Virus record (IMG/VR): IMGVR_UViG_3300031228_000003
Coordinates: 1 to 39,847 of that record
DNA from: a virus
Direction: 5' to 3' (one strand)
DNA: 39,847 bases
Shown here piece by piece: positions 73-39,088 of this stretch; the first letter of the stretch is position 1; every line of letters begins with the position of its first letter. The notes under the pieces are model-generated. The model saw only the letters and a list, made by a program, of their open reading frames with translations, made no database searches and was not told the origin of the DNA. A program made the translations under genes and the position numbers.

Positions 73-92
73 GGGGGTATAACGTTATGGGG
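73..92. repeat. PAL copy GGGGGT-ATAACGTTAT-GGGG
   Basis: Exact core at 79..88. The arms are not complementary. It lies upstream of gene 101. Confidence 0.9.
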
Positions 93-100
93 TGAATAGG

Positions 101-430
101 ATGAGTGCAAAGGAACTTGCAGAAGAATTGGGGACGGCATGGGAACGGGTGGGGAAGGATGCACAAGATGCAGCCGAACGGAGACGGAAACAATTCCGTG
201 ACGGAGTTATCGGGATTGATGAATTCTTATACTTCGCTAAGCGGGGACACAGGGAGGGTGGATACACGGGGGGAACATCGTTCAAGGCGACTAACCATAG
301 ATCAATCATTCTCGAATCCTTGCGCAACAATCCGGACGTTACGGTATCAACGCTACATGACGGGAACGGGAAGGTTGTACGGGTGTCGGTTCGATGGAAT
401 CCAAGGGTCCGGTTATATCTAAGCCCATAA
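101..430 (+). CDS. hypothetical protein (first gene of the rightward early block)
   Basis: This is track ORF 92..430. ATG 101 is preferred because GTG 92 lies inside PAL copy 73..92. The TAA stop at 428..430 lies inside PAL copy 423..440. Confidence 0.6.
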   Translation: MSAKELAEELGTAWERVGKDAQDAAERRRKQFRDGVIGIDEFLYFAKRGHREGGYTGGTSFKATNHRSIILESLRNNPDVTVSTLHDGNGKVVRVSVRWNPRVRLYLSP

Positions 431-440
431 CGTTATGGGC
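423..440. repeat. PAL copy GCCC-ATAACGTTAT-GGGC
   Basis: Exact 18-bp palindrome. It contains the TAA stop of gene 101..430. Confidence 0.9.
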
Positions 441-463
441 TAATCAAATCACACGGGGGAGAT

Positions 464-889
464 ATGTTGGAGGAACTGAGGGACGGTGAATCGCAATGGC
501 TTGATGCACTGTTGATCGGGGGTCGAATTGACCGGGGGGTAGGTGAGCCAAGATTATACAAGGCGGACGGCAAGGTTGTATCGCACAAGGACTTATCAAT
601 CATTCGGATTGATTACCCCGTGATTGCAATAGCCATCCGGATAAGGGCGCACTCCAGAGAGCCGGGTATAGCCGGTCGTTTCAAAACACGCGGGAGAGCT
701 ACACAGACAAAGATTCCCACGAGTAGGACGTACATCATTGGGGCATTGATAAATCGGGGGGAGTATCCCGTGACGATAACCGAGATAATTGATGCACGCG
801 GCATAACGGGGCCGATCGCGGCTTTGACATTGTCGCGGGGAATTGGTGAGACATTGGGTCTAATCGAAGAGTACAGGGATAGATCATGA
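464..889 (+). CDS. hypothetical protein
   Basis: 141-aa ORF. A GGGGGAG Shine-Dalgarno lies 3 nt upstream and a CAAATCACA leader motif lies at 445..453. There is an ATGA overlap with the next ORF. Confidence 0.6.
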   Translation: MLEELRDGESQWLDALLIGGRIDRGVGEPRLYKADGKVVSHKDLSIIRIDYPVIAIAIRIRAHSREPGIAGRFKTRGRATQTKIPTSRTYIIGALINRGEYPVTITEIIDARGITGPIAALTLSRGIGETLGLIEEYRDRS

Positions 890-1104
890 CATACAAAGAG
901 CAACGCGATATGCTATTGAACCTGTTGGGTACGATCACGGAAAACAACGGGGGCGAATTCATCGTATCGATGGGGGAGTATAACAGGTACAAGGAACGCG
1001 CGAAAGCGGATAAACTAACTTTCAAGGTATCGACCCTACTTGATCGGAACATTATCCTTATGGAGTTGGACGATCGATCGTCCTCGGGGGGCGGGGATGA
1101 ATGA
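886..1104 (+). CDS. hypothetical protein
   Basis: 72-aa ORF coupled by ATGA to the upstream gene. It contains the 16-bp palindrome GGACGATCGATCGTCC at 1068..1083. Confidence 0.55.
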   Translation: MTYKEQRDMLLNLLGTITENNGGEFIVSMGEYNRYKERAKADKLTFKVSTLLDRNIILMELDDRSSSGGGDE

Positions 1105-1396
1105 CGAAGGGTTGTTCCCGAAGAATCAAAACGAACTACACATTCGAATTCCATTGAGGGGCGGAAAGCTTTATGTAGTCCGGGAGGATGGCGTGCGGAA
1201 GCTCTGCAAGCAATATGCAATGCAACCCCATAACGCTATAGGTGAACTGCGAAAGCTTGCGGCATGGAACGAAGCGAATCCGAAGAAACGAAAGACCGAG
1301 CGGGGGATACGTCGGCATATACACAGTTGGTTCAGCAAGGTGCAGATAAATAACGCTCCGGTTGATTACCGGACGTCGGGAGGATTTTTTAAATGA
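1097..1396 (+). CDS. hypothetical protein
   Basis: In-frame ATG 1097 of track ORF 1040..1396 overlaps the previous stop (ATGAATGA). The ORF carries a degenerate PAL-like sequence at 1226..1242. Confidence 0.5.
   Translation: MNDEGLFPKNQNELHIRIPLRGGKLYVVREDGVRKLCKQYAMQPHNAIGELRKLAAWNEANPKKRKTERGIRRHIHSWFSKVQINNAPVDYRTSGGFFK
1226..1242. repeat. degenerate PAL-like sequence CCCC-ATAACGCTAT-AGG inside an ORF
   Basis: One core mismatch. It is the only copy well inside a CDS. Confidence 0.4.
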
Positions 1397-2250
1397 GCGA
1401 TAAGACAAATGATCTTGCGGAGATATTCGAGGGTGGTGATAGTATCCGATCGGAGGTCCCTCGATTCTGTGAGCAGTGCAAGCAGCCGTATACGGCAATT
1501 GTCTATCGGGTGCGCTCGACTGAATCGTATGAAACCCTTTGCTCGGATTGCATAGCGAAGAACAGGAAGTGTGAGGGGTGCGGCAACGAATTGGAAATTC
1601 GATACCTGTTCGGTGAAGAGCGGAAGATATGTCCGTCAATACTCTGTGAGGCCGGACATTACCAGAGAGCGGAAGCGCAAAAGGCGCTAACGGATTACAG
1701 GAAGTCAATAGTAACCGACGTATTGCCGGGACTCCGGTACTATGGGGATATAACACCCTCCAGGCTACCGAACCAGACTGCATTCAGGACGGCCGGAAAG
1801 GGGGCTCTAAGCCATTTGATTGCCGGGAGGGGGGTAATCCTCTACGGACCGACTGGAACGGCTAAGACGAGGGTTATGTATTTCGTACTTAAGCGGTTGT
1901 TTGTGGATACGGGACGGAGCGTAAAGGTGTTCGAGGGGTCGGAGTTCGGTAACGCGTCAGCTATAGCGTATGGACCGGACGGCGAAGGGGATCGGTTCGT
2001 TGATCGGCTGACGGGATACGACGTGCTGGCCTTTGATGATTTCGGCAAAGGGGTGCTTACGGAACGCTCGATAGCTACACTGTTTGCAGTGGTAGAAAAA
2101 AGGATGCAGGGATGTAGGCCGATATTCATCACCACGAACGATTCATTCAGCACACTTCGCGCAAAGGTGCGGGGAGAGTCGAGCGATACGACACTGACCC
2201 CGTTGTTCAGACGATTAGAAGAGTTCTGCGAATATATCGAAATGGGGTGA
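1393..2250 (+). CDS. DnaC/IstB-like AAA+ ATPase (putative helicase loader) with N-terminal Cys-rich zinc ribbon
   Basis: P-loop-like ILYGPTGTAKT and Walker B VLAFDDFG are present, and FITTN resembles sensor-1. The N-terminus has CEQC..CSDC..CEGC cysteine pairs. Confidence 0.7.
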   Translation: MSDKTNDLAEIFEGGDSIRSEVPRFCEQCKQPYTAIVYRVRSTESYETLCSDCIAKNRKCEGCGNELEIRYLFGEERKICPSILCEAGHYQRAEAQKALTDYRKSIVTDVLPGLRYYGDITPSRLPNQTAFRTAGKGALSHLIAGRGVILYGPTGTAKTRVMYFVLKRLFVDTGRSVKVFEGSEFGNASAIAYGPDGEGDRFVDRLTGYDVLAFDDFGKGVLTERSIATLFAVVEKRMQGCRPIFITTNDSFSTLRAKVRGESSDTTLTPLFRRLEEFCEYIEMG

Positions 2251-2254
2251 CGCA

Positions 2255-2677: not shown

Positions 2678-2694
2678 CCCATAACGTTATGGGC
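2677..2694. repeat. PAL copy GCCC-ATAACGTTAT-GGGC
   Basis: Exact. Its first G is the last base of the TAG stop of gene 2255..2677. Confidence 0.9.
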
Positions 2695-2952: not shown

Positions 2953-3096
2953 AACTTCCGTCTCTGCAAACACCGGAGCCGATTATTGGGTGATAGGTAT
3001 CCGGGGGTTTGTGGGGTGGTCCGCTATGGGGTAGTCAAGGGTTTGAATGGAACCGACTTATTCGGGTTCGATTCCCGACGGACCGCAAAGGGTAGA

Positions 3097-3114
3097 GGGT
3101 ATAACGTTATGGGG
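3097..3114. repeat. PAL copy GGGT-ATAACGTTAT-GGGG
   Basis: Exact core. The arms are not complementary. It ends 5 nt upstream of the methyltransferase ATG. Confidence 0.9.
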
Positions 3115-3118
3115 TGCA

Positions 3119-3850
3119 ATGAATCATATAGATTTATTTAGCGGAATCGGCGGTTTCTCGTTAGCTGCAAAATGGGTATGGGGCGATGAGCACAAGGTTT
3201 GTGCCTTTGTAGAGCGGGACGAATTTTGCAGAAAGGTACTACGCAAACACTGGCCGAATGCTCCGATATTTCCGGACGTCACGTATTTCAACGGGAGGGG
3301 ATACAATGGACAAATCGACTTACTCACGGGGGGGTTCCCCTGTCAACCGTATTCATTCACCGGGAACCGTAGGGGCGCGAAAGACGACCGTGCGCTCTGG
3401 CCGGAGATGTTCAGAATCATTGACGAAGTCCGGCCCCGTTGGGTACTTGCAGAAAATGTGTTTGGGTTCGTTGAAATGGGGCTCGAAGAAACGATACTTA
3501 ACCTGGAGAGTATTGGTTACGAAACGGGGTCGTTCGTTATTCCGGCTGTTTCCGTCGAAGCCGATCACGAAAGAAATAGAATATGGATTGTTGCCTACTC
3601 TGACGCTGAACGACGGACAGAACACAACCCTTCCCCCGTCTATGGTGAATCGCAATGGGTCATTAGTGGGGCATCTTGTACGATTGGGGAAAGGGGGTTG
3701 CTTAAATCCGGAGTGGACGGAGCAGTTTATGGGTTACCCGGTCGGATGGACCGATATAGAATAAAGGCATTGGGTAACGCTATCGTTCCACAGGTAGCCG
3801 CAAACCTATTTGAGTTCATGAAAAAGGTAGATGAAAAGTTCAGGGCATAA
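3119..3850 (+). CDS. DNA (cytosine-5)-methyltransferase, minimal 243-aa form
   Basis: Motif I DLFSGIGG, motif IV GGFPCQPYS, motif VI LAENV, motif VIII-like HERNRIWIVA and motif X GNAIVPQV are all present. ATG 3119 gives the canonical MNHIDLFSGIGG N-terminus. The TAA stop lies inside degenerate PAL 3843..3860. Confidence 0.85.
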   Translation: MNHIDLFSGIGGFSLAAKWVWGDEHKVCAFVERDEFCRKVLRKHWPNAPIFPDVTYFNGRGYNGQIDLLTGGFPCQPYSFTGNRRGAKDDRALWPEMFRIIDEVRPRWVLAENVFGFVEMGLEETILNLESIGYETGSFVIPAVSVEADHERNRIWIVAYSDAERRTEHNPSPVYGESQWVISGASCTIGERGLLKSGVDGAVYGLPGRMDRYRIKALGNAIVPQVAANLFEFMKKVDEKFRA

Positions 3851-3860
3851 CGTTGTAGGC
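3843..3860. repeat. degenerate PAL copy GGGC-ATAACGTTGT-AGGC
   Basis: One core mismatch. It contains the TAA stop of the methyltransferase gene. Confidence 0.7.
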
Positions 3861-4849: not shown

Positions 4850-4866
4850 CCCATAACGTTATGGGC
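4849..4866. repeat. PAL copy GCCC-ATAACGTTAT-GGGC
   Basis: Exact. It shares its G with the TAG stop of gene 4511..4849. Confidence 0.9.
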
Positions 4867-5201: not shown

Positions 5202-5218
5202 CCCATAACGTTACGGGG
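5202..5218. repeat. degenerate PAL copy CCC-ATAACGTTAC-GGGG
   Basis: One core mismatch. It starts immediately after the TAA stop of gene 4893..5201. Confidence 0.7.
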
Positions 5219-6695: not shown

Positions 6696-6713
6696 CCCCA
6701 TAACGTTATGGGC
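6696..6713. repeat. PAL copy CCCC-ATAACGTTAT-GGGC (first of a tandem pair)
   Basis: It is part of the 24-nt direct repeat ACCCCATAACGTTATGGGCTAACC at 6695..6718 and 6721..6744. Confidence 0.9.
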
Positions 6714-6721: not shown

Positions 6722-6739
6722 CCCCATAACGTTATGGGC
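6722..6739. repeat. PAL copy CCCC-ATAACGTTAT-GGGC (second of a tandem pair)
   Basis: See 6696..6713. Confidence 0.9.
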
Positions 6740-7218: not shown

Positions 7219-7634
7219 GGAACTTCAACATAGCGAAGAGTGACGACGGTTCGTATATCAGGGCCAGCCTACAAACCGGCAATGATCCTACATTCAAAGT
7301 CGAATCATTCTGGTTCCACGTTATGTTAACCGGAGAGAAGGGGACGCGCTCGGAACGTTGGGTATGGACCTTGTACAATGGTCCATACCAGATTGATTCG
7401 GGGAACAGGGGGACGGACTTTGCGGCAATCCGGGAAGCCGTCGAAAGGCTGAAGGTATATATAATAACCTTGTACAACAAGGTAACGGAAACCAATTTCC
7501 AGCTATGGTATACGGAACGGAAGGTAGACCAAAGGCAATTCATCGATTCAATACCAACACCGAACGGGGGAGCGAATGGAGGAGCGGAAACCGACGGAGC
7601 GGACGCAGCAGTTCCAGTGGATACAGAAGTGTGA
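7215..7634 (+). CDS. hypothetical protein
   Basis: 139-aa ORF with an ATGA overlap with the upstream gene. Confidence 0.6.
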   Translation: MRNFNIAKSDDGSYIRASLQTGNDPTFKVESFWFHVMLTGEKGTRSERWVWTLYNGPYQIDSGNRGTDFAAIREAVERLKVYIITLYNKVTETNFQLWYTERKVDQRQFIDSIPTPNGGANGGAETDGADAAVPVDTEV

Positions 7635-7875
7635 TGGAACCTTGTGGATATACAAGGCAGCCGGATACACGATCCGTATAACGTCAGCCACAACAACGTC
7701 ATACAAGTGGCGACTGTATGACGTAACCGGAGAACTGCTGTACATTGACGATGTGAGGATAGAGGGGGAAGCGGAAGACTTGGATGAGGCAAAGCACAAT
7801 TCGGAATACGGATTAATGGGTTACCTTGCTTGGGTCAAGGATCGAATTAGGATGAATAACGGGATAAGCCCATAA
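7576..7875 (+). CDS. hypothetical protein
   Basis: 99-aa ORF with a GGGGGAG Shine-Dalgarno. The TAA stop lies inside PAL 7868..7885. Confidence 0.55.
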   Translation: MEERKPTERTQQFQWIQKCDGTLWIYKAAGYTIRITSATTTSYKWRLYDVTGELLYIDDVRIEGEAEDLDEAKHNSEYGLMGYLAWVKDRIRMNNGISP

Positions 7876-7885
7876 CGTTATGGGC
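7868..7885. repeat. PAL copy GCCC-ATAACGTTAT-GGGC
   Basis: Exact. It contains the TAA stop of gene 7576..7875. Confidence 0.9.
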
Positions 7886-9290: not shown

Positions 9291-9309
9291 GGGGTATAAC
9301 GTTATGGGC
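9291..9309. repeat. PAL copy GGGGT-ATAACGTTAT-GGGC
   Basis: Exact core, within composite element copy B. Confidence 0.9.
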
Positions 9310-9331: not shown

Positions 9332-9346
9332 TATAACGTTATGGGC
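9329..9346. repeat. PAL copy GGGT-ATAACGTTAT-GGGC
   Basis: Exact core. On the minus strand it abuts the TAG stop of the portal gene. Confidence 0.9.
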
Positions 9347-11073
9347 TATTCGACCTCCGCCACCGCTCCCGCAATCGCTGCAAGGAACTGGCTTTGTATA
9401 ACATCTGATTCCAACTTACCCGTATCGATCATATCGAACGCTTCTGGAGTCAACAGGAATTCCTCTATCTCTTTGGCGGACATTCCCGATAGTCTCTCTT
9501 TGATTGCGTCGACCATAGGCGCAACCGTTGCCGACACTTCCCGTTCGTCAAGTGCAACCCCAAGCACGGTTTCCGTTGCCGCTTGGGGTTGGGTTAATCC
9601 TTCGCCCAATTCAACGGCAAACCGTTTGTTGTCGAGTTGCTTCGGAACATCACCCTCCGGAAGGGTGCGATTAAATCCCGGTCCGGGTGCAACGGGTGCG
9701 GACACTCCGAACGAATCGGCAGGGAACAGGCCGAGTGCATCCGGATAGTCATAACCAAACGCCGTCATTGCCGCATTAATGCAGATGTTCCGGGGAAGCA
9801 TTCCGCTTGCATAAGCTACCTGATACTGGTACAGGGTTGTGAGACCGCCGACGGTAAAGCGTACCTGATTAGACGATATACTCGGAATCTTGAATGAGTC
9901 AATTTCCAGACCGTAGGTCTTCGCGTAATACTCTTTGTTGAAGATTATGCCGTGGTCCTTTGCAAGTCCCGTATCCCGGTTCAGAATGTTTATATCGAAC
10001 TTCTCCTTTTTGCGAAGCTCGATCCATGGAAGTCGCTCCGGTTCGAGTCCGTAGTTCATCACGTTGATATAATTGATCAACGTGAAAAAGAACTGTTCGA
10101 CAAGGCGCGCCCCACTGACTACGATATCCTCCCGAACCTGAACGGCCGTCTCTTGGTCCCCCAATGCTCCCGGCGTTCCGTTCATTGCCCCGTCATGCCC
10201 TAACCATATCTGCGTGATTATACTATCGACGTACTCGATTGCTTCTCTGTAGATAGCGGAGTTCGAACTTGAACCCGTTGACTTGACATCGGCCGATACC
10301 GATTCAGGGAGAACAAGGATACCGTCCTGATACATTTCAAGTACCGTGTTCGCAAGTTCCTGAACCTTACCATCTTCTTCAAAGAACACAGGGTTATACG
10401 TGATCGTAGGCCACGGCATACCATAGCGTTCGGCAAAGAGAAGCCAGAATTCAAGGTTAGTCTTTTTGATCTGAACAGGCCAGTAACACTGTTCCAGATT
10501 TGACTTGCCGTACGGGTTCGTTGCCGTCGGTTGATTGCGGGATATGATAACCTTCATCGGGTGTTCGATCGGTTCGCCCCCGTGGTTATGTATACTCCGG
10601 AATAGCAACTTACCCGTGTCGTCAAAGCCAAACCATTTAGCCGGTTTGAGCGTTGCCGCTACGGGGTCGATACGTCCGGCCGGTCCCCCCTTCCATTCGA
10701 TCTCGTGAACAGCATACCCGTATTGTTTGGCCGTTAGTATCTCTTCAATTAGTTGCATTATCGGGAGCGATTCAATAACAGCCTGAATCTCCGTGAATAT
10801 GTCAACCGGACAATCTCCCGGAATTACGGTAAACTCCCGGCTGGTAACTCCGGCATTGAATGCCTGAATTGCCGCACTTACCTTACCGTCCGATAACAGT
10901 TCATCGTAAACGGTAATATCCCTCCCGATCTTGTTAAGCAGGGTGGAGGGATTCGGCATAATCTTGAGCAGACCGGACAACGCTTGTGCAACGCTCCCGA
11001 AACTACCTCGTGCCGTTCGGGTGTTGATCGTGTCCGGCTTTAATAGTGCCGCTACATTTCCTTTGTGTGCCAT
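9346..11073 (-). CDS. portal protein (Mu gp29 / DUF935-like)
   Basis: 575 aa, placed between the large terminase and the Mu F-like gene. The N-terminal region resembles DUF935 portals. The TAG stop abuts PAL 9329..9346. Confidence 0.8.
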   Translation of the reverse strand: MAHKGNVAALLKPDTINTRTARGSFGSVAQALSGLLKIMPNPSTLLNKIGRDITVYDELLSDGKVSAAIQAFNAGVTSREFTVIPGDCPVDIFTEIQAVIESLPIMQLIEEILTAKQYGYAVHEIEWKGGPAGRIDPVAATLKPAKWFGFDDTGKLLFRSIHNHGGEPIEHPMKVIISRNQPTATNPYGKSNLEQCYWPVQIKKTNLEFWLLFAERYGMPWPTITYNPVFFEEDGKVQELANTVLEMYQDGILVLPESVSADVKSTGSSSNSAIYREAIEYVDSIITQIWLGHDGAMNGTPGALGDQETAVQVREDIVVSGARLVEQFFFTLINYINVMNYGLEPERLPWIELRKKEKFDINILNRDTGLAKDHGIIFNKEYYAKTYGLEIDSFKIPSISSNQVRFTVGGLTTLYQYQVAYASGMLPRNICINAAMTAFGYDYPDALGLFPADSFGVSAPVAPGPGFNRTLPEGDVPKQLDNKRFAVELGEGLTQPQAATETVLGVALDEREVSATVAPMVDAIKERLSGMSAKEIEEFLLTPEAFDMIDTGKLESDVIQSQFLAAIAGAVAEVE

Positions 11074-11074: not shown

Positions 11075-11092
11075 GCCTATAACGTTATGGGT
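11075..11092. repeat. PAL copy GCCT-ATAACGTTAT-GGGT
   Basis: Exact core. It lies between the large terminase stop and the portal start. Confidence 0.9.
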
Positions 11093-12956: not shown

Positions 12957-12974
12957 GCCCATAACGTTATGGGC
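12957..12974. repeat. PAL copy GCCC-ATAACGTTAT-GGGC
   Basis: Exact. It lies in the divergent region between the leftward and rightward late blocks. Confidence 0.9.
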
Positions 12975-14187: not shown

Positions 14188-14205
14188 CCCCATAACGTTA
14201 TGGGC
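14188..14205. repeat. PAL copy CCCC-ATAACGTTAT-GGGC
   Basis: Exact core. It lies between the scaffold and decoration genes. Confidence 0.9.
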
Positions 14206-16097: not shown

Positions 16098-16114
16098 CCC
16101 ATAACGTTATGGGC
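16097..16114. repeat. PAL copy GCCC-ATAACGTTAT-GGGC
   Basis: Exact. It shares its G with the TAG stop of gene 15870..16097. Confidence 0.9.
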
Positions 16115-16140: not shown

Positions 16141-16158
16141 GGGCATAACGTTATAGGG
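16141..16158. repeat. PAL copy GGGC-ATAACGTTAT-AGGG
   Basis: Exact core. It lies downstream of a CCCTC box and upstream of gene 16169. Confidence 0.9.
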
Positions 16159-17377: not shown

Positions 17378-18480
17378 AATACACGATCGACAGAGAATTA
17401 TTTTTCGACACGGTTCGTGCAAAGTTCGGACCCCTTAGCCAATATCAGGTAAACGGGTTTGAAAACTTTCTGTCCCGTTATGAATCGGAGTATATCGACA
17501 CGTCCGACCTCGATACGTCGTTACGACAATTCGCGTACATACTCGGCACGGTATGGCACGAATCAGCCCAGACGATGAATGCTATCCGGGAGGGGGCGAA
17601 CAAGTCCGATCCGATTATATCGGACGCGCAAGCATATAGCAGAGTAACCAACTATCTGCGAAGGGTAGGACGGGGAACGTCCTACGCAACCCGTAAGGCT
17701 AATGGGGTTAGCTATTACGGACGGGGACCGGTGCAAGTAACGTGGGAAGATAATTATCGGAAGATGGGTCCTATCCTTGGAGTCGATCTTCTGAACAATC
17801 CGGACTTGTTATTGCAGGAGCCGTATGGCACCCGATCGGTATTCGAGGGGATGACGCGGGGAACGTACACGGGTCGGAAGCTATCGCAGTATATCACCCC
17901 CCACAAAACCGAATACTTCAACGCGCGGGACATTGTCAACGGACGGAAGGACAAAGCCGGGGATATACGTATCTATGCCGAACGATTCCAGTCAGCGTTA
18001 TTCCTCAACCCGAATCGACCGGCTGTTGTACTCGAAGAGTCGGCCCCGAAAGAACCGGACCTTCCCGACCCTGATACGCTGGCGTCAGAGTATGCCGGGG
18101 AATATATCTCGAAAGACGTTCGTCCGGTAGACTGGAAAAGTATCGAACCCCCTCCGAAGAAAAATGTATTTGACAAGGTGCGGGAATGGATCGTTAGTAA
18201 ACTTCCGTCCCCGTCATATTCAACAAACGAAGGAAACCGAAACATGGAACCGCAGAAAAAGAGTTGGATTATCACCCTGATTAAACCCGTTGCCGTCGCC
18301 CTCTTTGCGTGGCTGGGAATCGCTATTGACCCGATGATCTTAGATAACCCGTCAGCATGGGGTATTGTTATCCTCGTCGGCTACGCACTCATTGGCATTG
18401 CCGAAAAGTTTTTCATCCGAAAGGAAGTGAAGGAAGTGAAAGAGGAAGTGAAGGCTAATTCGCCCCACGGGACCCTATAA
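17374..18480 (+). CDS. GH19 (chitinase-like) endolysin with two C-terminal transmembrane helices
   Basis: HESAQT, YYGRGPVQVTWEDNY and GVDLLNNPDLLL match barley chitinase SHETTG, YYGRGPIQLSHNYNY and GVDLLANPDLV. The C-terminus has WIITLIKPVAVALFAWLGIAI and WGIVILVGYALIGIAEKFFI. The TAA stop lies inside PAL 18473..18491. Confidence 0.85.
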   Translation: MKYTIDRELFFDTVRAKFGPLSQYQVNGFENFLSRYESEYIDTSDLDTSLRQFAYILGTVWHESAQTMNAIREGANKSDPIISDAQAYSRVTNYLRRVGRGTSYATRKANGVSYYGRGPVQVTWEDNYRKMGPILGVDLLNNPDLLLQEPYGTRSVFEGMTRGTYTGRKLSQYITPHKTEYFNARDIVNGRKDKAGDIRIYAERFQSALFLNPNRPAVVLEESAPKEPDLPDPDTLASEYAGEYISKDVRPVDWKSIEPPPKKNVFDKVREWIVSKLPSPSYSTNEGNRNMEPQKKSWIITLIKPVAVALFAWLGIAIDPMILDNPSAWGIVILVGYALIGIAEKFFIRKEVKEVKEEVKANSPHGTL

Positions 18481-18491
18481 CGTTATACCCC
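18473..18491. repeat. PAL copy CCCT-ATAACGTTAT-ACCCC
   Basis: Exact core. It contains the TAA stop of the endolysin gene. Confidence 0.9.
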
Positions 18492-20429: not shown

Positions 20430-20447
20430 GCCCATAACGTTATGGGC
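20430..20447. repeat. PAL copy GCCC-ATAACGTTAT-GGGC
   Basis: Exact. It starts immediately after the TAA stop of gene 19731..20429. A canonical terminator follows 28 nt later. Confidence 0.9.
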
Positions 20448-20474: not shown

Positions 20475-20508
20475 ACGGGGACGGGAAACACCCGTCCCCG
20501 TTTTACTT
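20475..20508 (+). terminator. intrinsic terminator
   Basis: Stem ACGGGGACGGG (20475..20485), loop AAACA, stem CCCGTCCCCGT (20491..20501), then a TTTT run overlapping the last stem base, then ACTT. Confidence 0.8.
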
Positions 20509-20917: not shown

Positions 20918-20935
20918 GCCCATAACGTTATAGGG
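20918..20935. repeat. PAL copy GCCC-ATAACGTTAT-AGGG
   Basis: Exact core. Confidence 0.9.
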
Positions 20936-23519: not shown

Positions 23520-23537
23520 CCCCATAACGTTATAGGC
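23520..23537. repeat. PAL copy CCCC-ATAACGTTAT-AGGC
   Basis: Exact core. Confidence 0.9.
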
Positions 23538-23993: not shown

Positions 23994-24010
23994 CCCATAA
24001 CGTTATGGGG
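23993..24010. repeat. PAL copy GCCC-ATAACGTTAT-GGGG
   Basis: Exact core. It shares its G with the TAG stop of gene 23541..23993. Confidence 0.9.
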
Positions 24011-25787: not shown

Positions 25788-25804
25788 CCCATAACGTTAT
25801 GGGG
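25787..25804. repeat. PAL copy GCCC-ATAACGTTAT-GGGG
   Basis: Exact core. It shares its G with the TAG stop of the frameshift ORF. Confidence 0.9.
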
Positions 25805-25817: not shown

Positions 25818-25835
25818 CCCCATAACGTTATGGGG
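25818..25835. repeat. PAL copy CCCC-ATAACGTTAT-GGGG
   Basis: Exact core. It is linked to the previous copy by the small hairpin GGGGTCG-GACGAT-TCGACCCC. Confidence 0.9.
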
Positions 25836-30268: not shown

Positions 30269-30281
30269 TTAACGACGATAT

Positions 30282-30315
30282 ACACGACGGGGGTTTTCGG
30301 TTTCCTCCGTCGTGT
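30282..30315 (+). terminator. hairpin directly after the tape measure gene
   Basis: ACACGACGGGGG pairs with CCTCCGTCGTGT: 12 bp including one G-T, with a 10-nt T-rich loop. There is no 3' T tract. Confidence 0.5.
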
Positions 30316-30317
30316 CC

Positions 30318-30361
30318 GGGAGGGGGTGGGGTCCGGATGTGCGGTCACCCTACCCCCTCCC
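30318..30361 (+). other. 15-bp G-rich/C-rich hairpin
   Basis: GGGAGGGGGTGGGGT (30318..30332) pairs with ACCCTACCCCCTCCC (30347..30361) with one G-T pair. Confidence 0.6.
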
Positions 30362-30372
30362 CATATCGGTCC

Positions 30373-30386
30373 CCTACGATCGTAGG
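30373..30386. promoter_or_regulatory. operator-like palindrome CCTACGATCGTAGG
   Basis: Perfect 14-bp palindrome. Its core TACGATCGTA recurs at 30689..30698 and 38062..38071. Confidence 0.55.
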
Positions 30387-30403
30387 AAATCCCCGTTTCG
30401 AAA

Positions 30404-30426
30404 CCCTCAAAATTTGCGCAGAATCA
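30404..30426 (+). promoter_or_regulatory. CCCTC-box copy CCCTCAAAATTTGCGCAGAATCA
   Basis: One of four copies of a 23-nt motif. The others are 9310..9331 (minus), 16118..16140 and 35539..35561. Confidence 0.6.
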
Positions 30427-30446
30427 GCCCATAACGTTATACCCCC
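30427..30446. repeat. PAL copy GCCC-ATAACGTTAT-ACCCCC
   Basis: Exact core, within composite element copy A. Confidence 0.9.
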
Positions 30447-30553
30447 TCAAAATCTTGCAGAAAACCGCGATTTCTTGAAGCCACTCGGATAGGGGTAGAC
30501 CCGGAAAATCCCGTCACGGGCTTCTTTGGGGCCCCTAAATTTGGGAAATTTAA

Positions 30554-30573
30554 GGGGGTATAACGTTATGGGG
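30554..30573. repeat. PAL copy GGGGGT-ATAACGTTAT-GGGG
   Basis: Exact core. It has the same form as copy 73..92. Confidence 0.9.
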
Positions 30574-30612
30574 TCTCCCCTCGAAAATTCCTCGGTCTCC
30601 CCTCGAAAATTC
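30572..30612 (+). repeat. tandem direct repeat GGTCTCCCCTCGAAAATTC x2 (22-bp period), iteron-like
   Basis: Identical 19-mers at 30572..30590 and 30594..30612. A degenerate third unit CCCTCGATTTCTCC lies at 30615..30628. Confidence 0.8.
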
Positions 30613-30686
30613 TTCCCTCGATTTCTCCACGGAATCCACGATTCCCGAACTTTTTTTCGATCGCTGTCGATTTTTCTTGCGTGTGT

Positions 30687-30699
30687 CCTACGATCGTAG
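30687..30699. promoter_or_regulatory. operator-like palindrome CCTACGATCGTAG
   Basis: 12-bp palindrome CTACGATCGTAG at 30688..30699, about 70 nt upstream of gene 30771. Confidence 0.55.
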
Positions 30700-30770
30700 T
30701 ACCTTTGTACTAAGTCAGAGCGGGGGACAGTCTCCCGCAAGACCCACAAATCACAATCGGAAATTTTACC

Positions 30771-31897: not shown

Positions 31898-31915
31898 GCC
31901 CATAACGTTATACCC
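31898..31915. repeat. PAL copy GCCC-ATAACGTTAT-ACCC
   Basis: Exact core, preceded by TAG. Confidence 0.9.
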
Positions 31916-31941: not shown

Positions 31942-32229
31942 ATGAAGAACGACATTTTTTGGTCAGCTTCGGCGGGAACGGGTGGGCGAATTACGGACAC
32001 GAGAGTTTACGACACACTGCGGGATGCAAAGAGACTGATTGCAGAGTATGATAATCATGGAGGGGGTGGGTATATCATCCGGCACGAATCGCGAGGGGTT
32101 GAGGGTCATCCCGTGTCCGGCAAGATTGTATATCAAACTCCCGGATATAATTTATCCGGTCACTACGAGATGGAGCGTGATAAGATCGTAGAGAATTGGA
32201 ATCCCGACAAACCCGAACCGACCCCATAA
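31942..32229 (+). CDS. hypothetical protein
   Basis: 95-aa ORF with a GGAGAG Shine-Dalgarno and a CAAATCACA leader at 31919..31927. The TAA stop lies inside degenerate PAL 32222..32239. Confidence 0.55.
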   Translation: MKNDIFWSASAGTGGRITDTRVYDTLRDAKRLIAEYDNHGGGGYIIRHESRGVEGHPVSGKIVYQTPGYNLSGHYEMERDKIVENWNPDKPEPTP

Positions 32230-32239
32230 CGTCATAGGC
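32222..32239. repeat. degenerate PAL copy CCCC-ATAACGTCAT-AGGC
   Basis: One core mismatch. It contains the TAA stop of gene 31942..32229. Confidence 0.7.
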
Positions 32240-32779: not shown

Positions 32780-34177
32780 ATGCCGAAGGCAAAGACCGCA
32801 ACCAAGACCAAATCAACCAAGACAAAAACCGCAAAACCGGAGGGGGGAGAACCGACAACGAAGAAAGATAATTTGACCGACGCACAACGGGGGGCGATGG
32901 AGGAACTGCAATCTATCGGAGCGGAAACCCCGACCCGTAGCAGTGCGGCGCACGGGTACGTAATTCAAATGAATTCCATCGAACCGCAACGGGTGCCACT
33001 GGGAACGATATTCTACCATCCCGGCCGTGATCCGCTAATGACCACCCGAAAAATTACACAGACACGGGTAGGGTTCGATAAGGAGTATGCAGTGGAGGAG
33101 CTGGCCCCGTTTCTCCTGGAAGATCCGAATTTTGACTTCCCGGCAATTCAGATGATATATAATCCGGATACGGGATTGACGTACATAGCCGACGGATTCC
33201 ACCGGCTAACCGCTTACCAGCATGTAGGACGGGAGACAATCCCCGTACGTCTGGCACTTGGAACCGAGGAAGATGCGATTAAGGTGGCGACCGGAGCGAA
33301 TGCAGAACACGGTCGACGTCGCACCCGTCAGGATATACGCAAGGCCGTAACTATGCTTTTGCAGAATCCTGAATTCGCCAAGCGGTCCGATACGTATATA
33401 GCGAATTGCGCTAAGGTGTCGCAGCCTTTCGTCGGCAAGATGAGGAAGGAAATTTTCGGAGACGATACACCGACCGAGCGTATCGGCACGGACGGCAAAA
33501 CGCACAAGGTTAGTACGACTCCGGTCGGATCGAAACCGAGCAAAGCGAAAGAGCCGGACGTAATCGAGACACGACCGGAGAATAAATACATTACCGAAGA
33601 TGCCAACGGGGATATTCTCCCGGACCACCTACAGCGTGTGTTCACGTGCGGCAAAGATGTTGCCGCAAAGGTGAGTGAACTGAAACGGTCGGCAAAGGCA
33701 CTAACGGAAATTGTCTCCGCTTATCAGAGCGAAGACAACGAAGGAACGCTATATGCTCCGATCGTTGACGGAATCGAAACCGCACTCAAGCAGATTAATT
33801 CTGCACTGAACCGGCTGAACCGGGAGTCACTTCCGAAGTACATTTCCCCGTACACGAAGGGACGGGAGAACGAAATGTATCCCGACTCGGAGGAACATCT
33901 TGCACCCGTCGAAGGGTATGAGTATCCGGACGGGACACGGGTAAATATCGGATGGGTTTCCGATACGCAGTATAAGGAATCCCCCGAAGATCTTCGTAAC
34001 GATCCGGATCTATTGCATTACGACTATGATTTCGGAACGGAGGAAGTGGGGGATGAGGAAGCCGACGACGTCGGCACGGTAGAGGAAGGGGAAGAGATTG
34101 AGGTCGAAGCCGATCCGGACCTTATGCAGGATTCCCCGGATGAAGAGGAAGAGCCAGCGATAAACGCATTTGCGTAG
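32780..34177 (+). CDS. ParB-like N-terminal domain protein with acidic C-terminal tail
   Basis: ParB/Srx-type motif YIADGFHRLTAYQHVGRETIPV is followed by ATGANAEHGRRRTRQDIRKAV and an HTH-like segment. The N-terminus is lysine-rich and the C-terminus is strongly acidic. Confidence 0.7.
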   Translation: MPKAKTATKTKSTKTKTAKPEGGEPTTKKDNLTDAQRGAMEELQSIGAETPTRSSAAHGYVIQMNSIEPQRVPLGTIFYHPGRDPLMTTRKITQTRVGFDKEYAVEELAPFLLEDPNFDFPAIQMIYNPDTGLTYIADGFHRLTAYQHVGRETIPVRLALGTEEDAIKVATGANAEHGRRRTRQDIRKAVTMLLQNPEFAKRSDTYIANCAKVSQPFVGKMRKEIFGDDTPTERIGTDGKTHKVSTTPVGSKPSKAKEPDVIETRPENKYITEDANGDILPDHLQRVFTCGKDVAAKVSELKRSAKALTEIVSAYQSEDNEGTLYAPIVDGIETALKQINSALNRLNRESLPKYISPYTKGRENEMYPDSEEHLAPVEGYEYPDGTRVNIGWVSDTQYKESPEDLRNDPDLLHYDYDFGTEEVGDEEADDVGTVEEGEEIEVEADPDLMQDSPDEEEEPAINAFA

Positions 34178-34190: not shown

Positions 34191-34210
34191 AGGGTATAAC
34201 GTTATACCCT
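34191..34210. repeat. PAL copy AGGGT-ATAACGTTAT-ACCCT (20-bp perfect palindrome, arms inverted relative to the majority form)
   Basis: Exact core. Confidence 0.9.
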
Positions 34211-35518: not shown

Positions 35519-35535
35519 CCCATAACGTTATGGGC
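35518..35535. repeat. PAL copy GCCC-ATAACGTTAT-GGGC
   Basis: Exact. It shares its G with the TAG stop of gene 35162..35518. Confidence 0.9.
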
Positions 35536-35538
35536 TGA

Positions 35539-36393: not shown

Positions 36394-38034
36394 ATGTCAA
36401 ATCACACACAGACGGTTTACGACCTACGGGGATACCAGACAAAGGCATCCGATAGTATACTATCGGATTTATCCGACGTCGATAGTGCGCTACTCGTTGC
36501 CGCTACGGGATCAGGTAAGACCGTGATATACAGCGAGGTTGTACGGCGATACCTTGCAGAGCACGGGGGGCGTGCTCTGGTTCTTGCTCCACAATTTCGA
36601 CTACTGGAACAGGGGCGCAAGGCGTTAAACGATTTTGCGGGATTCGGTATCGGGTCGATCGGGTACGAATCCGGAGACCATCACCTGAACCCTCGTCACA
36701 TTCCGAAGATCGTTTTATCTACGCTCGACACAATGCGGAACCGGCTCGACAAGTTCGACCCGGATACGTTCCGGATTATGATTATCGACGAAGCGGATTA
36801 CGCAACACCCGGAACATGGACGATCCGAAAGTATTTCGATTCGGCTAAAGCATTAGGGGTAACCGCAACAACGAAGCGAACCGATAACCTTAAGCTGTTG
36901 GGGAGCGGTTGTTATGATACCATCTCCGACGTAATCGAAATCCGGGACCTGATAGAAGAGGGGTACTTGGTTCCGATACAACAGAACTTTGTCGATACTG
37001 CTACGATCAATCTGGAAGGGGTGAAGGTAACCGCGAAAGGTGATTTCAAAGAGGATGAATTAGACGCGATAATGATTCAGGAGCAATCCGTTTTAGAGGT
37101 TGCGCAAATTGCTATCAACGAATCCGGCACCCGTCCGACGTTGATATTCTGTTCATCCGTCGAGCACTCCGAACGGGTGGCGTCGAGTATAAACAATCAT
37201 CTTCCGGGATATGCTGCAAGCGTATCGGGAGCGGATAAGGATCAGGAATATAACATTGGCCGTTTCAAGCGAGGGGATATACAGTACCTATGCAATTGCA
37301 TGCTGTTGACGAGGGGGGCGGATATGCCGCACGTGTCGCACTTGGTTATGGCACGTCCGACAAAATCCACGTCGCTATATACGCAGATGGTAGGACGTGG
37401 AACGCGCCTGCTCGGGCGCGACTATGTCGAGAGTATGGCAAACGGGAAAACTGATCTACTCGTTACCGACATTGTCGGTGTCAGCCATCAACATAAACTA
37501 ACGACGGTGATAGATATACTATCACCCGGATCGTCTCCGGAGTCAATCGAGGAAGCGATACGCAACGCTCGAAAGAATGGTTCTCGCAGTGCGGTTGATA
37601 TAGCGAAAGACGCCGAACGTCTGACAGCCGAAGCCGAAGCACGTGCAAAGCTGAAAGCCAAGGGGGCGCAATACACGAAAACGGCCGTCGATCCATTCGC
37701 AGTTATGGGCATTCGAAAGCCGGTCGCCTATGGGCTACCAATGACGGAGGGACAGGAAAGAGCACTAAGGAATTTCAAGGTTCCGGAGGATGTACTATCG
37801 ACACTCGACAAACGGCAAGCGGGGAAGCTTATTCAATCCCTTATTGAAGGGATCAACAAGGGAAGTGCAACACTGAAACAGAAAACACTACTTCGAAAGT
37901 ACGGACTGTTGAAGGACGGGGAAGATATATCCTTTGATGCAGCGGGAGACGTGATTACGATAATCAGCCGGAATAACTGGAGGTTGCAGGGGGTAGAGTT
38001 CGAAGTTCATGCAGCGATGTCGGAGCAAGTATAG
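36394..38034 (+). CDS. SF2 DEAD/DEAH-box helicase
   Basis: Motif I AATGSGKT, motif II IIDEAD, motif III VTAT and motif VI QMVGRGTR are present. Confidence 0.85.
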   Translation: MSNHTQTVYDLRGYQTKASDSILSDLSDVDSALLVAATGSGKTVIYSEVVRRYLAEHGGRALVLAPQFRLLEQGRKALNDFAGFGIGSIGYESGDHHLNPRHIPKIVLSTLDTMRNRLDKFDPDTFRIMIIDEADYATPGTWTIRKYFDSAKALGVTATTKRTDNLKLLGSGCYDTISDVIEIRDLIEEGYLVPIQQNFVDTATINLEGVKVTAKGDFKEDELDAIMIQEQSVLEVAQIAINESGTRPTLIFCSSVEHSERVASSINNHLPGYAASVSGADKDQEYNIGRFKRGDIQYLCNCMLLTRGADMPHVSHLVMARPTKSTSLYTQMVGRGTRLLGRDYVESMANGKTDLLVTDIVGVSHQHKLTTVIDILSPGSSPESIEEAIRNARKNGSRSAVDIAKDAERLTAEAEARAKLKAKGAQYTKTAVDPFAVMGIRKPVAYGLPMTEGQERALRNFKVPEDVLSTLDKRQAGKLIQSLIEGINKGSATLKQKTLLRKYGLLKDGEDISFDAAGDVITIISRNNWRLQGVEFEVHAAMSEQV

Positions 38035-38058
38035 ACGAATATTTATTTTCGACAAGTG

Positions 38059-38087
38059 TTGTACGATCGTAGTAATTAACGTATATT
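38059..38087 (+). promoter_or_regulatory. sigma70-like promoter candidate overlapping an operator-like palindrome
   Basis: TTGTAC (38059..38064), a 17-nt spacer, then TATATT (38082..38087). The palindrome TACGATCGTA at 38062..38071 overlaps the -35 element and spacer. Confidence 0.4.
38061..38074. promoter_or_regulatory. operator-like palindrome copy (GTACGATCGTAGTA)
   Basis: It shares the 13-mer TACGATCGTAGTA with 30689..30701. Confidence 0.5.
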
Positions 38088-38098
38088 GGGGTTTGGAA

Positions 38099-38395
38099 AT
38101 GGCAAATACATTTCACGTCGGGATATTGAACGCGGATGGGTTTCAAGGGGTAGGTGAGAACCTAAAGTTAGCGTGGGCGGATTACGAGCCAGATAATCCC
38201 GGCGTACTATACTTAACAGAGATTACCGGTCGGAAACATTTGAACCTGATCTTGTCGGGTGCGTATTCGAATCGGGGGTTCTGGACTCGCCTTACTCCGG
38301 AAGCTGCAACCGAAGCGTATCGGGATGGTCGATACGACGACCGGTTTATATGGGACGATGAAACGCAATCAATCGGACTGAATGATACACGGTGA
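38099..38395 (+). CDS. hypothetical protein
   Basis: In-frame ATG 38099 (MANTFHVG) of track ORF 38009..38395. The longer start would overlap the helicase gene. Confidence 0.55.
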   Translation: MANTFHVGILNADGFQGVGENLKLAWADYEPDNPGVLYLTEITGRKHLNLILSGAYSNRGFWTRLTPEAATEAYRDGRYDDRFIWDDETQSIGLNDTR

Positions 38396-38403
38396 AAAAT
38401 TAT

Positions 38404-38652
38404 ATGCACATAGTTGACGAGTCCGAACTACGGGACGTGGCGACCCGGTTAGTGAAAGAGGCCGGGGGGGTTCGCCTTGCAGGTAAGCAGACGGGTTACG
38501 CAACGAACACAATATACAACGCACTGAACCCGGCTAACGAAGTGTCGCGACACAGAGCAATTCTGATAAACCTGATTGCGTACCTGACACGGGGAAGCGT
38601 TTCCACACAGTACGCAATCCGGACAACTGAATCGAGCCTTAAGGTTCGATAG
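38404..38652 (+). CDS. putative HTH DNA-binding protein
   Basis: ATG 38404 follows GGTGA (GTG 38392 is an alternative start). AGKQTGYATNTIYNAL is HTH-like. The TAG stop abuts PAL 38652..38669. Confidence 0.5.
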   Translation: MHIVDESELRDVATRLVKEAGGVRLAGKQTGYATNTIYNALNPANEVSRHRAILINLIAYLTRGSVSTQYAIRTTESSLKVR

Positions 38653-38669
38653 CCCATAACGTTATGGGG
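38652..38669. repeat. PAL copy GCCC-ATAACGTTAT-GGGG
   Basis: Exact core. It shares its G with the TAG stop of gene 38404..38652. Confidence 0.9.
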
Positions 38670-38694
38670 TCAAACACAAATCACGGGAGAGAAG

Positions 38695-39078
38695 ATGAAA
38701 GAGAAACGGAAGATCGAAAAGCGAGATATGGTAGTTGCCGTATTCAGTCATTTCGGTTTAGATACAAACACGACGTCATTTGATCCAAGCGGACGGGATG
38801 CAGATAGGGCAATTGATGGATTGCGGACGATTGCGGAAAAGTACGGTCTGGAATTGCGCTTTGATCGGGAGAAGCAGCCTATGATCTGCGCAGGTGAAAC
38901 CATCTTGTTCGATCCGGACGAAGCGGAATTACCGGGGGATCGGGACACAGAGGAAGAACCGCTATACATTACCGAGCGTGGAGAGGTTGCGATAAAACCG
39001 AATTACTCTGCGCGGTTGACAATCGAAGCGGGTCCCGACGGAGACGACGAAACGATTCTAAGGATCGTAAGGGCATAA
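38695..39078 (+). CDS. hypothetical acidic protein
   Basis: 127-aa ORF with a GGGAGAG Shine-Dalgarno. The TAA stop lies inside PAL 39071..39088. Confidence 0.55.
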   Translation: MKEKRKIEKRDMVVAVFSHFGLDTNTTSFDPSGRDADRAIDGLRTIAEKYGLELRFDREKQPMICAGETILFDPDEAELPGDRDTEEEPLYITERGEVAIKPNYSARLTIEAGPDGDDETILRIVRA

Positions 39079-39088
39079 CGTTATGGGG
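39071..39088. repeat. PAL copy GGGC-ATAACGTTAT-GGGG
   Basis: Exact core. It contains the TAA stop of gene 38695..39078. Confidence 0.9.

Follow-up and report, generated by a model that had tools for sequence, protein, structure and literature searches.

What could lead a phage to repeat one short, perfect palindrome at the boundaries between its genes? The question is raised by the IMG/VR virus record IMGVR_UViG_3300031228_000003, whose entire 39,847 nucleotides were analyzed (the window in what follows) and in which the 10-bp palindrome ATAACGTTAT, referred to here as PAL, recurs from one end to the other. We consider it somewhat more likely than not that PAL is read by a ParB-family protein and that its copies form an array resembling parS sites or KorB operators, a reading suggested by sequence identity with a palindrome of plasmid parB genes and by the predicted ParB-like fold of a phage protein.

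Copy number, sequence, and placement of PAL

Exact counting yields 30 matches to ATAACGTTAT in the window. The match at 39799 to 39808 is the copy at 79 seen again in the terminal repeat, which leaves 29 unique copies in 39,720 unique bp and confirms both the number and the coordinates given by an earlier annotation made from the sequence alone (the first-pass annotation). Dinucleotide-preserving shuffles, by comparison, hold 0.03 copies on average and 1 at most. On a gene map that combines the list of open reading frames (ORFs) with the gene calls of identical public contigs, the centers of all 29 copies are non-coding or lie on a stop codon, once the start of the C5 cytosine methylase is set at ATG 3119. 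The methylase is annotated at 3047 to 3850, and a start at 3047 would make the copy at 3101 coding; we regard ATG 3119, which lies 8 nt past PAL and is preceded by GGGG, as the likelier start. Non-coding DNA makes up 9.3% of the genome, so that 29 non-coding copies out of 29 correspond to a binomial P value of 1.2e-30, and the earlier placement of every exact copy between ORFs or on ORF ends is borne out. Of the 38 junctions whose gap measures 10 nt or more, PAL occupies 24, and it is absent from all the overlapping or abutting ones on the gene map. It is found in both leftward and rightward gene units, with a median spacing of 1.3 kb and a density of one copy per 1.4 kb.

In its complete form the consensus reads TAGCCC-ATAACGTTAT-GGGCTA, a palindrome of 22 bp in which the core is invariant in 29 of 29 copies and the flanks are variable. 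After GTTAT, the half-sites continue with GGGC (27), GGGG (13), ACCC (10), AGGG or AGGC (5), GCCC (2), and GGGT (1), T stands at +5 in 52 of the 58 half-sites, and 10 of the 29 copies have no palindromic extension at all beyond the core. Some flanks are direct rather than inverted repeats, as in GGGGT-core-GGGGT. The G/C triplets formerly ascribed to every copy hold as CCC/GGG for most of them, the rest having GGT, CCT, ACC, or AGG. The TAA within the core is the stop codon of four genes, other genes have TAG or TAA immediately 5' of the GCCC flank, and the full 22-mer contains stop codons in three frames in both orientations. Distances from PAL to the start codon span 3 to 330 nt. As for the four one-mismatch copies reported previously, those at 3847, 5205, and 32226 stand, on or just after the stops of three further junctions, whereas the one placed at 1232 really starts at 1230, inside a gene, and two other copies in coding sequence (12393 and 18776) had been missed.

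PAL as a duplex-DNA site

PAL is very probably a duplex-DNA site for a dimeric protein, because the core sequence is conserved together with its dyad symmetry while stems are absent in many copies. In RNA folding, 12 of the 29 copies gave a minimum free energy above -6 kcal/mol (0.0 in three cases), and 17 can fold a stem of 6 to 10 bp with an ACGU loop at -6.7 to -16 kcal/mol. A U (T) tract follows none of the 29 copies, and PAL has no match in Rfam. For these reasons a hairpin role cannot explain PAL, and the hairpin, attenuation, or processing element that the first-pass annotation had listed among its candidates loses ground also from the AT-only flanks of the relatives described below. 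The same annotation had judged that PAL is probably not simply the terminator of this phage, which is supported here: intrinsic terminators and comparable structured RNAs require a stable G+C-rich stem in every copy and a U tract, neither of which PAL has, and the transcription units of the phage end in canonical hairpin-plus-T terminators (about 7945, 20475, and 32299).

The same palindrome in plasmid parB genes

The 16- to 18-bp form of PAL, (G)CCCATAACGTTATGGG(C), is identical to a palindrome carried by many plasmid parB genes. Scanning bacterial and archaeal genomes, one per species, for the exact 16-mer CCCATAACGTTATGGG returned at least 120 genome loci, dominated by cyanobacteria and including Thermus, Meiothermus, Calidithermus, and Rubrobacter. 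At about 80 of these at least 120 loci, the 16-mer lies inside parB or next to it in a parAB operon, and ParB identities range from 35 to 100%. In 93 parB genes it is always read in one frame, encoding (T/A/P/S)HNVMG, and several loci contain it twice, with the additional copy placed 5' of parA or in the interval between parA and parB. A metagenome scan gave 75 loci, of which about half had the 16-mer inside or beside parB as well, and the identical GCCC...GGGC form was seen at parAB loci in microbial-mat metagenomes. In the phage, 15 of the 29 copies match the plasmid 16- to 18-bp form with the flanks included.

Since the genome scan demanded the exact 16-mer, 13 homologous parB genes of complete cyanobacterial plasmids, chosen by protein similarity alone, served as an independent test. 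Most of them contain a long, perfect, AACGTT-centered palindrome at the equivalent codons, with lineage-specific arms: TACCCATAACGTTATGGGTA, CCCACAACGTTGTGGG, TTGACTAATAACGTTATTAGTCAA, TAGGAGAAACGTTTCTCCTA, TTAATGGAAACGTTTCCATTAA, and TTGCCCAAAACGTTTTGGGCAA; TCCAATAACGTTATTGGA, which is one of four CAATAACGTTATTG copies in its gene; GTTACCAATAACGTTATTGGTAAC, present twice, once upstream of parB; a 30-mer around GGGAAACGTTTCCC, also present twice; and a 34-mer around TGGTAACGTTACCA. Where the arms differ, so do the encoded amino acids, while the symmetry is kept, which argues for DNA-level selection for the dyad inside parB, as expected of a centromere. Plasmids conserve the CCC/GGG flanks even where the core changes, and two complete plasmids hold the site only in parB, one with three copies in 35.9 kb and the other with one variant copy in 27 kb. 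We predict from these sequences that the AACGTT-centered parB palindromes constitute a parS family of which PAL is one specificity class; PAL shares with parS sites a palindromic length of about 14 to 16 bp or more and identity with parB-linked sites.

An in-gene site of this kind is known for plasmid pTT27 of Thermus thermophilus, whose ParBm binds a palindrome inside its own gene, as demonstrated by electrophoretic mobility shift assays with competition and by foci in Escherichia coli (PMC4409726, PMC10085754). This ParBm is 41% identical to a Leptolyngbya protein of the PAL-type family, and the published parSm differs from PAL in sequence and position. The initial statement that PAL resembles nothing described can thus no longer be upheld, as its 16- to 18-mer is the palindrome of plasmid parB genes and one member of that family, in pTT27, has an experimentally shown in-gene parS. 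The literature search for the 10-mer retrieved no paper with PAL in a relevant context. In IMG/VR, the exact 18-mer had no match, and the 14-mer returned 36 single-copy loci, consistent with chance.

Some further observations concern the plasmid palindromes themselves, which measure 16 to 34 bp and come from cyanobacterial, Thermaceae, Rubrobacter, and other plasmids (loci L038, L037, L242, L243, and L253 to L264). The parB palindrome sits in an insertion within the helix-turn-helix (HTH) region and encodes x-N-V-x, and Nostoc and Scytonema parB genes have 2 to 5 in-frame copies, giving THNVMGE repeats. Locus L243 is the 35.9-kb plasmid pn6 of Nostoc sp. UHCC 0926 (NZ_CP117767.1), with three PAL copies in parB and an annotated protelomerase family protein; protelomerase is the hallmark of N15-type linear plasmid-prophages. 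The pTT27 parBm gene (L241, HB27) contains the near-palindrome GGGACAACGTTGTTCC at the HNVMG-aligned codons, which may, judging from this alignment, be a second, unreported ParBm site, the published parSm being AAGGACGCGTCCTT at locus position 3580.

The palindrome was also seen in 23 short microbial-mat contigs (Ga01631xx; L159 to L232), where GCCCATAACGTTATGGGC is part of a repeat of about 60 nt, TAAAAAGC.ACGAGAGAGTAAGT-PAL-AAACTCTCA. The repeat flanks small ORFs about 400 to 500 bp apart, and assemblies break there (L164, 786 and 1208; L219, 4145 and 4541). It adjoins a 340-amino-acid (aa) "GGRNRTAA" protein with a ParB box-II-like "YITGGRNRTAAI", for which there was no Pfam or PHROG hit and no significant hhalign result, and this contig family has no protein in common with the phage of the window.

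Conserved position in related phages

Protein searches identified three syntenic contigs in public assemblies, here L251, L244, and L250. In L251 (TerL 60% identical; GC content, 43%), an exact ATAACGTTAT lies in the divergent protease/TerS region, 4 nt before the TerS start, and a second one right after the TerL stop, which are the junctions of the window copies at 12961 and 11079; the flanks of PAL in this contig are AT rich. L244 (portal 41% and TerL 61% identical) contains ATAATATTAT, that is, PAL with the central CG symmetrically changed to TA, four times in 9.6 kb. Its sites upstream of TerS, between portal and MuF, and after a tail-S-like gene correspond to the junctions of the window copies at 12961, 9296/9333, and 7872, and one exact PAL stands at the contig end. 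PAL was not found in the L250 contig (TerL 44% identical; Logan SRR14126295), which carries a 20-nt dyad motif, CGATTATCAATTTCAAATCG, 11 times in 21 kb (406, 2745, 3366, 5417, 7028, 8209, 8906, 11318, 16184, 17599, and 19535), mostly in intergenic DNA, including the TerL/portal junction and the divergent region.

The position at the junction is thus conserved among the relatives while the sequence of the motif drifts yet stays symmetric, and the first-pass annotation's question of whether related genomes keep the element at syntenic junctions is answered positively by L251 and L244. The relatives also show that G/C flanks are not essential in this phage lineage. Nothing comparable to PAL was detected in remoter Mu-like loci, and searches of IMG/VR with the major capsid protein (MCP) and the portal protein returned either nothing or relatives at 26 to 27% identity without a repeated palindrome.

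Candidate readers of PAL

The 465-aa protein encoded at 32780 to 34177 starts with a Lys-rich N-terminal tail and a ParB/Srx N-domain (ADGFHR, with sulfiredoxin hits), followed by a "GAN..HG" box, an HTH (SDTYIANCAKVSQPFVGKMRKE), a long helical region, and an acidic tail. It has no Pfam hit. Its AlphaFold model has a mean pLDDT of 49, with values of 64 to 77 over residues 100 to 228, and Foldseek matches the model to Caulobacter crescentus ParB-parS (6T1F), KorB (8QA9 and 8QA8), and Noc-NBS (7OL9) with E values of 1e-4 to 1e-3 over about 156 columns, which comprise the N-domain and the DNA-binding domain. According to this model, we consider the protein to be a putative orphan ParB/KorB/Noc-like protein and a candidate reader of PAL. 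Among the roles proposed by the first-pass annotation, an operator array for a dimeric DNA-binding protein fits best, and the binder that it named first, this same protein, is ParB/KorB/Noc-like by fold match.

Support of an independent kind comes, by analogy, from phage MW202545.1 (L266), which encodes a 34%-identical homologue of the 465-aa protein. Its 50 kb contain the 17-bp palindrome TACTAGTC-N-GACTAGTA eight times (68, 10178, 10205, 27599, 34035, 43568, 49121, and 49150). Two copies lie in the parB-like gene (9886 to 10704), where they encode TSQTS repeats after the HTH, and the remaining six are dispersed, three of them in intergenic DNA. Other homologues were less informative: the distant P0002 and P0003 are on partial contigs without PAL or a repeated palindrome, and IMGVR_UViG_3300041973_000006, with a 36%-identical homologue and two 14-mers, is too GC rich and ambiguous to interpret.

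A resident host plasmid may instead supply the reader, a possibility favored by the 16- to 18-bp sequence identity, which extends to the CCC/GGG flanks. Within the window, no ORF matched a hidden Markov model (HMM) of the PAL-type ParBs, so that a canonical cognate ParB (GERR plus HTH_ParB) is missing; credible Walker A motifs were found only in TerL and the helicase, and there is no ParA partner among the Pfam hits.

Comparison with known systems

The system that PAL most recalls is the KorB network of plasmids RK2 and RP4, in which a ParB-fold protein with an HTH acts on perfect palindromic operators dispersed in the intergenic DNA of a mobile genome of about 40 to 60 kb, with no single clustered centromere. 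Both ingredients are present here, a ParB-fold protein with an HTH on the element itself (the 465-aa protein, on a model of moderate confidence, with KorB as one of its best matches by fold) and many dispersed perfect palindromes (29 non-coding copies). RK2 KorB, in contrast, has 12 OB operators, mainly near promoters, whereas the 29 phage sites are at cistron boundaries and stop codons within long operons; a promoter scan around PAL remained at chance level, with only the copy at 12961 adjoining a plausible promoter. Moreover, the phage protein has DGFHR instead of GERR, and the KorB network belongs to conjugative plasmids rather than to a phage. An IncC-like ParA was not found in the window, and no KorA partner turned up, although no search was aimed at KorA.

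In the ParABS systems with parS in parB that are known from plasmids of cyanobacteria and Deinococcota, the palindrome of many parB genes is identical to the 16- to 18-mer of PAL. These plasmids have 1 to 5 copies in or next to parAB, and their PAL-class sites are predicted only, whereas the phage has 29 copies genome-wide with none in a gene, and neither ParA nor a canonical ParB, on both of which counts it falls outside classical ParABS. Among phages, the nearest precedent is the linear plasmid-prophage N15, with its dispersed sopC-like centromeres, palindromic ParB(SopB) sites scattered over the genome rather than clustered; N15 has four of them and encodes SopA/SopB and a protelomerase, and the phage of the window shows none of these proteins.

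The stoperators of cluster A mycobacteriophages resemble PAL as dozens of copies of a short motif in short intergenic gaps of a genome of about 40 to 50 kb, and their proposed logic is genome-wide silencing by roadblock. They differ in being asymmetric 13- to 14-bp sites, oriented with transcription and read by the monomeric immunity repressor of temperate phages, whereas PAL is a perfect palindrome in units of both directions; the phage also gave no integrase or repressor family hit, which is weak evidence concerning its lifestyle. Finally, the 465-aa protein fits the description of the orphan phage proteins of ParB-CTPase fold surveyed in PMC12704722, which are phage borne, lack both a ParA partner and a ParA-binding motif, and have an N-domain that is divergent. 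The passages of that survey consulted here assign no cis-acting sites to them, whereas candidate site sets are visible in the window and in MW202545.1.

Proposed mechanism and its implications

In the model that we infer for binding, reader, sliding, and outcome, PAL is a 10-bp core within a 16- to 22-bp palindrome that would be read as duplex by a dimeric HTH protein of the ParB family. The reader would be either the phage's own 465-aa protein or the ParB of a resident host plasmid, the predicted in-gene centromere of which has the identical 16 to 18 bp. With 29 sites at a median spacing of 1.3 kb and at most cistron boundaries, this protein could nucleate along the whole genome, which it would coat completely if it were to slide as ParB or KorB does. 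The likely outcome would be genome-wide control or insulation of transcription units, comparable to that of RK2 KorB and cluster A stoperators; another possible outcome is the condensation or partition of an episomal phage genome, comparable to the role of the N15 centromeres.

We offer as a tentative variant that the phage practices centromere mimicry, in which 29 copies of a resident-plasmid centromere would recruit the host ParB along the phage genome. The CTP-switch clamp of the host, probably a cyanobacterium, would then be used without being encoded by the phage, either to silence or insulate operons or to segregate the episome, and competition with resident plasmids for ParB would be a side effect. 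More broadly, orphan phage ParB-like proteins might generally be paired with genome-wide palindrome sets, as in MW202545.1, which would give a large uncharacterized group of proteins its first cis-acting partners.

If the ParB-family reading is true, PAL, with one site per 1.4 kb, would surpass in density every array of ParB-type sites known from other replicons and would be the first such array to stand at nearly every cistron boundary of a phage, bringing control in the style of KorB or stoperators to a new phage lineage. It would also provide testable DNA targets for orphan phage ParB-CTPase-fold proteins, which are widespread and to which the consulted passages of PMC12704722 assign neither sites nor a function. 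The AACGTT-centered parB palindromes, a large and apparently undescribed family, could serve as a natural series for the evolution of ParB-parS specificity and incompatibility, and the identity of a phage site with a predicted plasmid centromere makes the recruitment of a host plasmid partition protein by a phage a testable idea.

Several findings weigh against a ParB-family reader. The relatives lack the CCC/GGG flanks, L244 alters the AACGTT center that is invariant in the plasmid family, and L250 uses a motif unrelated to PAL; such drift among relatives fits any co-evolving phage regulator equally well as a ParB. The structure model of the 465-aa protein is of low confidence overall. Between this protein and the PAL-type plasmid ParBs there was no similarity by BLASTP or HMM, and hhalign gave an alignment that kept box II in register without reaching significance; as its GxxR motif the phage protein has the Srx-like form DGFHR, compared to GERR in canonical ParB. 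Its HTH helix, VSQPFVGKMR, is near-identical in homologues from high-GC phages, on partial contigs of 4 to 9 kb that contain no PAL, where they lie in replication modules beside helicase and primase. Neither ParA nor a ParA-binding motif, an integrase, or a recognizable repressor was found in the phage, which leaves a partition or lysogeny role unsupported by independent evidence.

Alternative explanations

The competitor that survives best, although we deem it unlikely, is an operator array for a dimeric phage regulator outside the ParB family (a repressor, a late activator, or an early-to-late switch) that co-evolves with its site, in which case identity with the plasmid parS class would be a coincidence. 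It would readily account for the different motifs at kept junctions (ATAACGTTAT, ATAATATTAT, and CGATTATCAATTTCAAATCG) and for relatives without CCC/GGG flanks, and it could be encoded by one of the many small phage ORFs without a family. Coincidental identity over 16 to 18 bp is, however, improbable among 65,536 possible 16-bp palindromes, all the more so as the flanks match in 15 of the 29 copies. No repressor-like or Mor/C-like gene was detected among the phage proteins, and besides a replication-initiator-like HTH, the one clear site-specific DNA-binding fold is the ParB-like one.

We consider improbable a recombination or mobility signal, such as a boundary for cassette exchange by co-infecting phages, a nuclease or recombinase target, or a miniature mobile palindrome inserted downstream of genes. 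The recombination boundary had been among the candidates of the first-pass annotation, and positive evidence for it did not emerge. Stop codons in all frames of the 22-mer, genes ending in or before the element, the mat-metagenome element with the 18-mer in its repeat, and the Erf recombinase encoded by the phage would suit such a signal. Against this stands that tyrosine and serine recombinases, integron integrase, transposase, and homing endonuclease were not found among the phage proteins and that the copies share neither longer flanks nor target-site duplications. PAL also does not conform to attC (R'' RYYYAAC and R' GTTRRRY with a structured spacer), since both CCATAAC and GTTATGG deviate from the 7-bp core-site consensus at two of its four degenerate positions and the arms of PAL abut.

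Action in the transcript, as a U-less terminator, attenuator, stabilizer, or processing site, is highly improbable. The 17 foldable copies and the coupling of PAL to stop codons are what it has in its favor; the 12 copies without a stable fold, the flanks that are often direct rather than inverted, ATAATATTAT, which is unable to fold, and the genuine hairpin-plus-U terminators already present at operon ends all contradict it. An invariant core sequence is not expected of a stem, and the identical sequence lies mid-gene in parB.

No more credible is a bidirectional promoter element (-10-like TAACGT or TATAAC) that would create many small transcription units. The L244 variant has TATTAT (TATAAT with its flank) 6 to 8 nt before start codons, and several window copies lie 3 to 8 nt before one, but the distances to the start codon vary widely and the search for a -35 partner was negative. 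A perfect 10-bp palindrome that stays invariant in 29 copies is also not what a sigma-70 -10 element normally looks like, and promoters would make no sense where genes converge or on stop codons.

A repeat of the REP or uptake-signal type, passively acquired from the host chromosome, has next to no chance even though one copy per 1.4 kb resembles uptake-sequence density and the 16-mer is enriched in cyanobacterial genomes, since the high chromosomal copy number of host REP, MITE, or uptake repeats is not seen among the matches listed (at most 2 loci per genome among at least 120, the phage's own host not having been identified), the multi-copy loci among them are embedded in parB except for four two-copy ones, and complete plasmids carry PAL only in parB, which favors the dedicated phage system claimed by the first-pass annotation over a host REP-like repeat.

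Four other known elements were compared with PAL and rejected. XerCD/dif has similar CATAA...TTATG arms, but its spacer is 6 bp and that of PAL 2 bp; the Mu C/Mor site (TTAT-N6-ATAA) has the opposite arrangement; a methylation target of the C5 methylase is excluded by the L244 variant, which has no CpG; and the cyanobacterial HIP1 octamer GCGATCGC is absent from the window.

The phage genome and the individual copies

The replicon is a tailed phage with a Mu-like head module (Portal_Mu, Mu_F, and Mu_Gp36). It also encodes TerL, a protease, MCP, a 1,468-aa tape measure protein, and a GH19 lysin, as well as Erf, a DEAD-box helicase, an IstB/DnaC-like loader, a replication-initiator-like winged HTH protein, and the C5 methylase. 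Its portal protein is only 28 to 31% identical to those of the closest GenBank phages, and a 20-kb megablast query had no match among GenBank phages. The family hits among its proteins include no integrase, transposase, recognizable repressor, or ParA, an absence that is weak evidence, and the window contains no tRNA genes. An exact 127-bp terminal direct repeat (1 to 127 and 39721 to 39847) is in keeping with assembly of the genome as a circle. SRR9005026 and ERZ27256897 contain identical contigs of 39,750 and 39,861 bp; as all public copies are 100% identical and no sequence variants exist among them, they give no information on microdiversity. The sample accessions appeared in no paper retrieved by the literature search.

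Table 1. Coordinates of PAL copies and associated features in the window
Feature	Position	Strand	Remarks
PAL core	79..88		GGGGT-core-GGGGT; 3 nt before first gene; repeated at 39799-39808
PAL core	427..436		Core TAA is stop of gene 92-430
PAL core	2681..2690		TAG-CCC form; 3 nt past stop codon
PAL core	3101..3110		8 nt 5' of probable C5 DNA methylase start ATG 3119
PAL core	4853..4862		Junction 4849/4893
PAL core	6700..6709		Tandem pair, first member; 26 bp apart
PAL core	6726..6735		Tandem pair, second member (partner 6700)
PAL core	7872..7881		On stop of 7576-7875; convergent region after tail-S-like gene; L244 element at syntenic junction
PAL core	9296..9305		Portal/MuF junction, leftward unit; L244 element at syntenic junction (7573)
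PAL core	9333..9342		Portal/MuF junction, second copy
PAL core	11079..11088		TerL/portal junction; exact L251 copy at syntenic junction (2979)
PAL core	12961..12970		Divergent TerS/protease control region; elements at equivalent place in L251 (1150) and L244 (3947)
PAL core	14192..14201		Junction 14157/14236
PAL core	16101..16110		Perfect 22-bp form, then BOX2
PAL core	16145..16154		Non-symmetric flanks GGGC/AGGG
PAL core	18477..18486		Within 12-nt junction; stop in core; next start 6 nt beyond
PAL core	20434..20443		31 nt 5' of canonical intrinsic terminator 20475-20501
PAL core	20922..20931		Junction 20911/20949
PAL core	23524..23533		Within 24-nt junction
PAL core	23997..24006		Junction 23993/24021
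PAL core	25791..25800		Pair 31 bp apart, first; upstream of tape-measure gene
PAL core	25822..25831		Pair, second (partner 25791)
PAL core	30431..30440		In 502-nt non-coding region; BOX2 on each side
PAL core	30560..30569		In 502-nt non-coding region; then iteron-like TCTCCCCTCGAAAATTC repeats
PAL core	31902..31911		Junction 31800/31942
PAL core	34196..34205		18 nt past stop of ParB-like gene; only copy with symmetric flanks GGGT/ACCC
PAL core	35522..35531		Junction 35518/35578
PAL core	38656..38665		Junction 38652/38695
PAL core	39075..39084		On stop of 38695-39078; upstream of replication-initiator-like gene
Degenerate PAL ATAACGTTGT	3847..3856		On methylase stop codon
Degenerate PAL ATAACGTTAC	5205..5214		3 nt past stop codon
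Degenerate PAL ATAACGTCAT	32226..32235		On stop codon
Putative orphan ParB/KorB/Noc-like protein, 465 aa	32780..34177	+	Candidate phage-encoded PAL reader
Long non-coding region with BOX2, iteron-like repeats, and two PAL copies	30269..30770	+	Possible origin or control region

A second motif, BOX2 (CCCTCRAAA..), occurs in 7 copies compared to about 1 expected, with sites that include 9284, 16118, and 35539, and often abuts PAL, where it supplies the variant flank ACCC. In the 502-nt region at 30269 to 30770, iteron-like BOX2 repeats (TCTCCCCTCGAAAATTC, two to three times) lie between two CCTACGATCGTAG palindromes; the region may be an origin or an early control region, and its relation to PAL is uncertain. 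With respect to hexamers of the window, TCCGGA occurs 59 times and CGATCG 30 times, about 10 of each being expected, and of 52 AACGTT sites, 22 are outside PAL. Many other 6-bp palindromes are limited to one to three sites in the window, a scarcity that suggests restriction avoidance.

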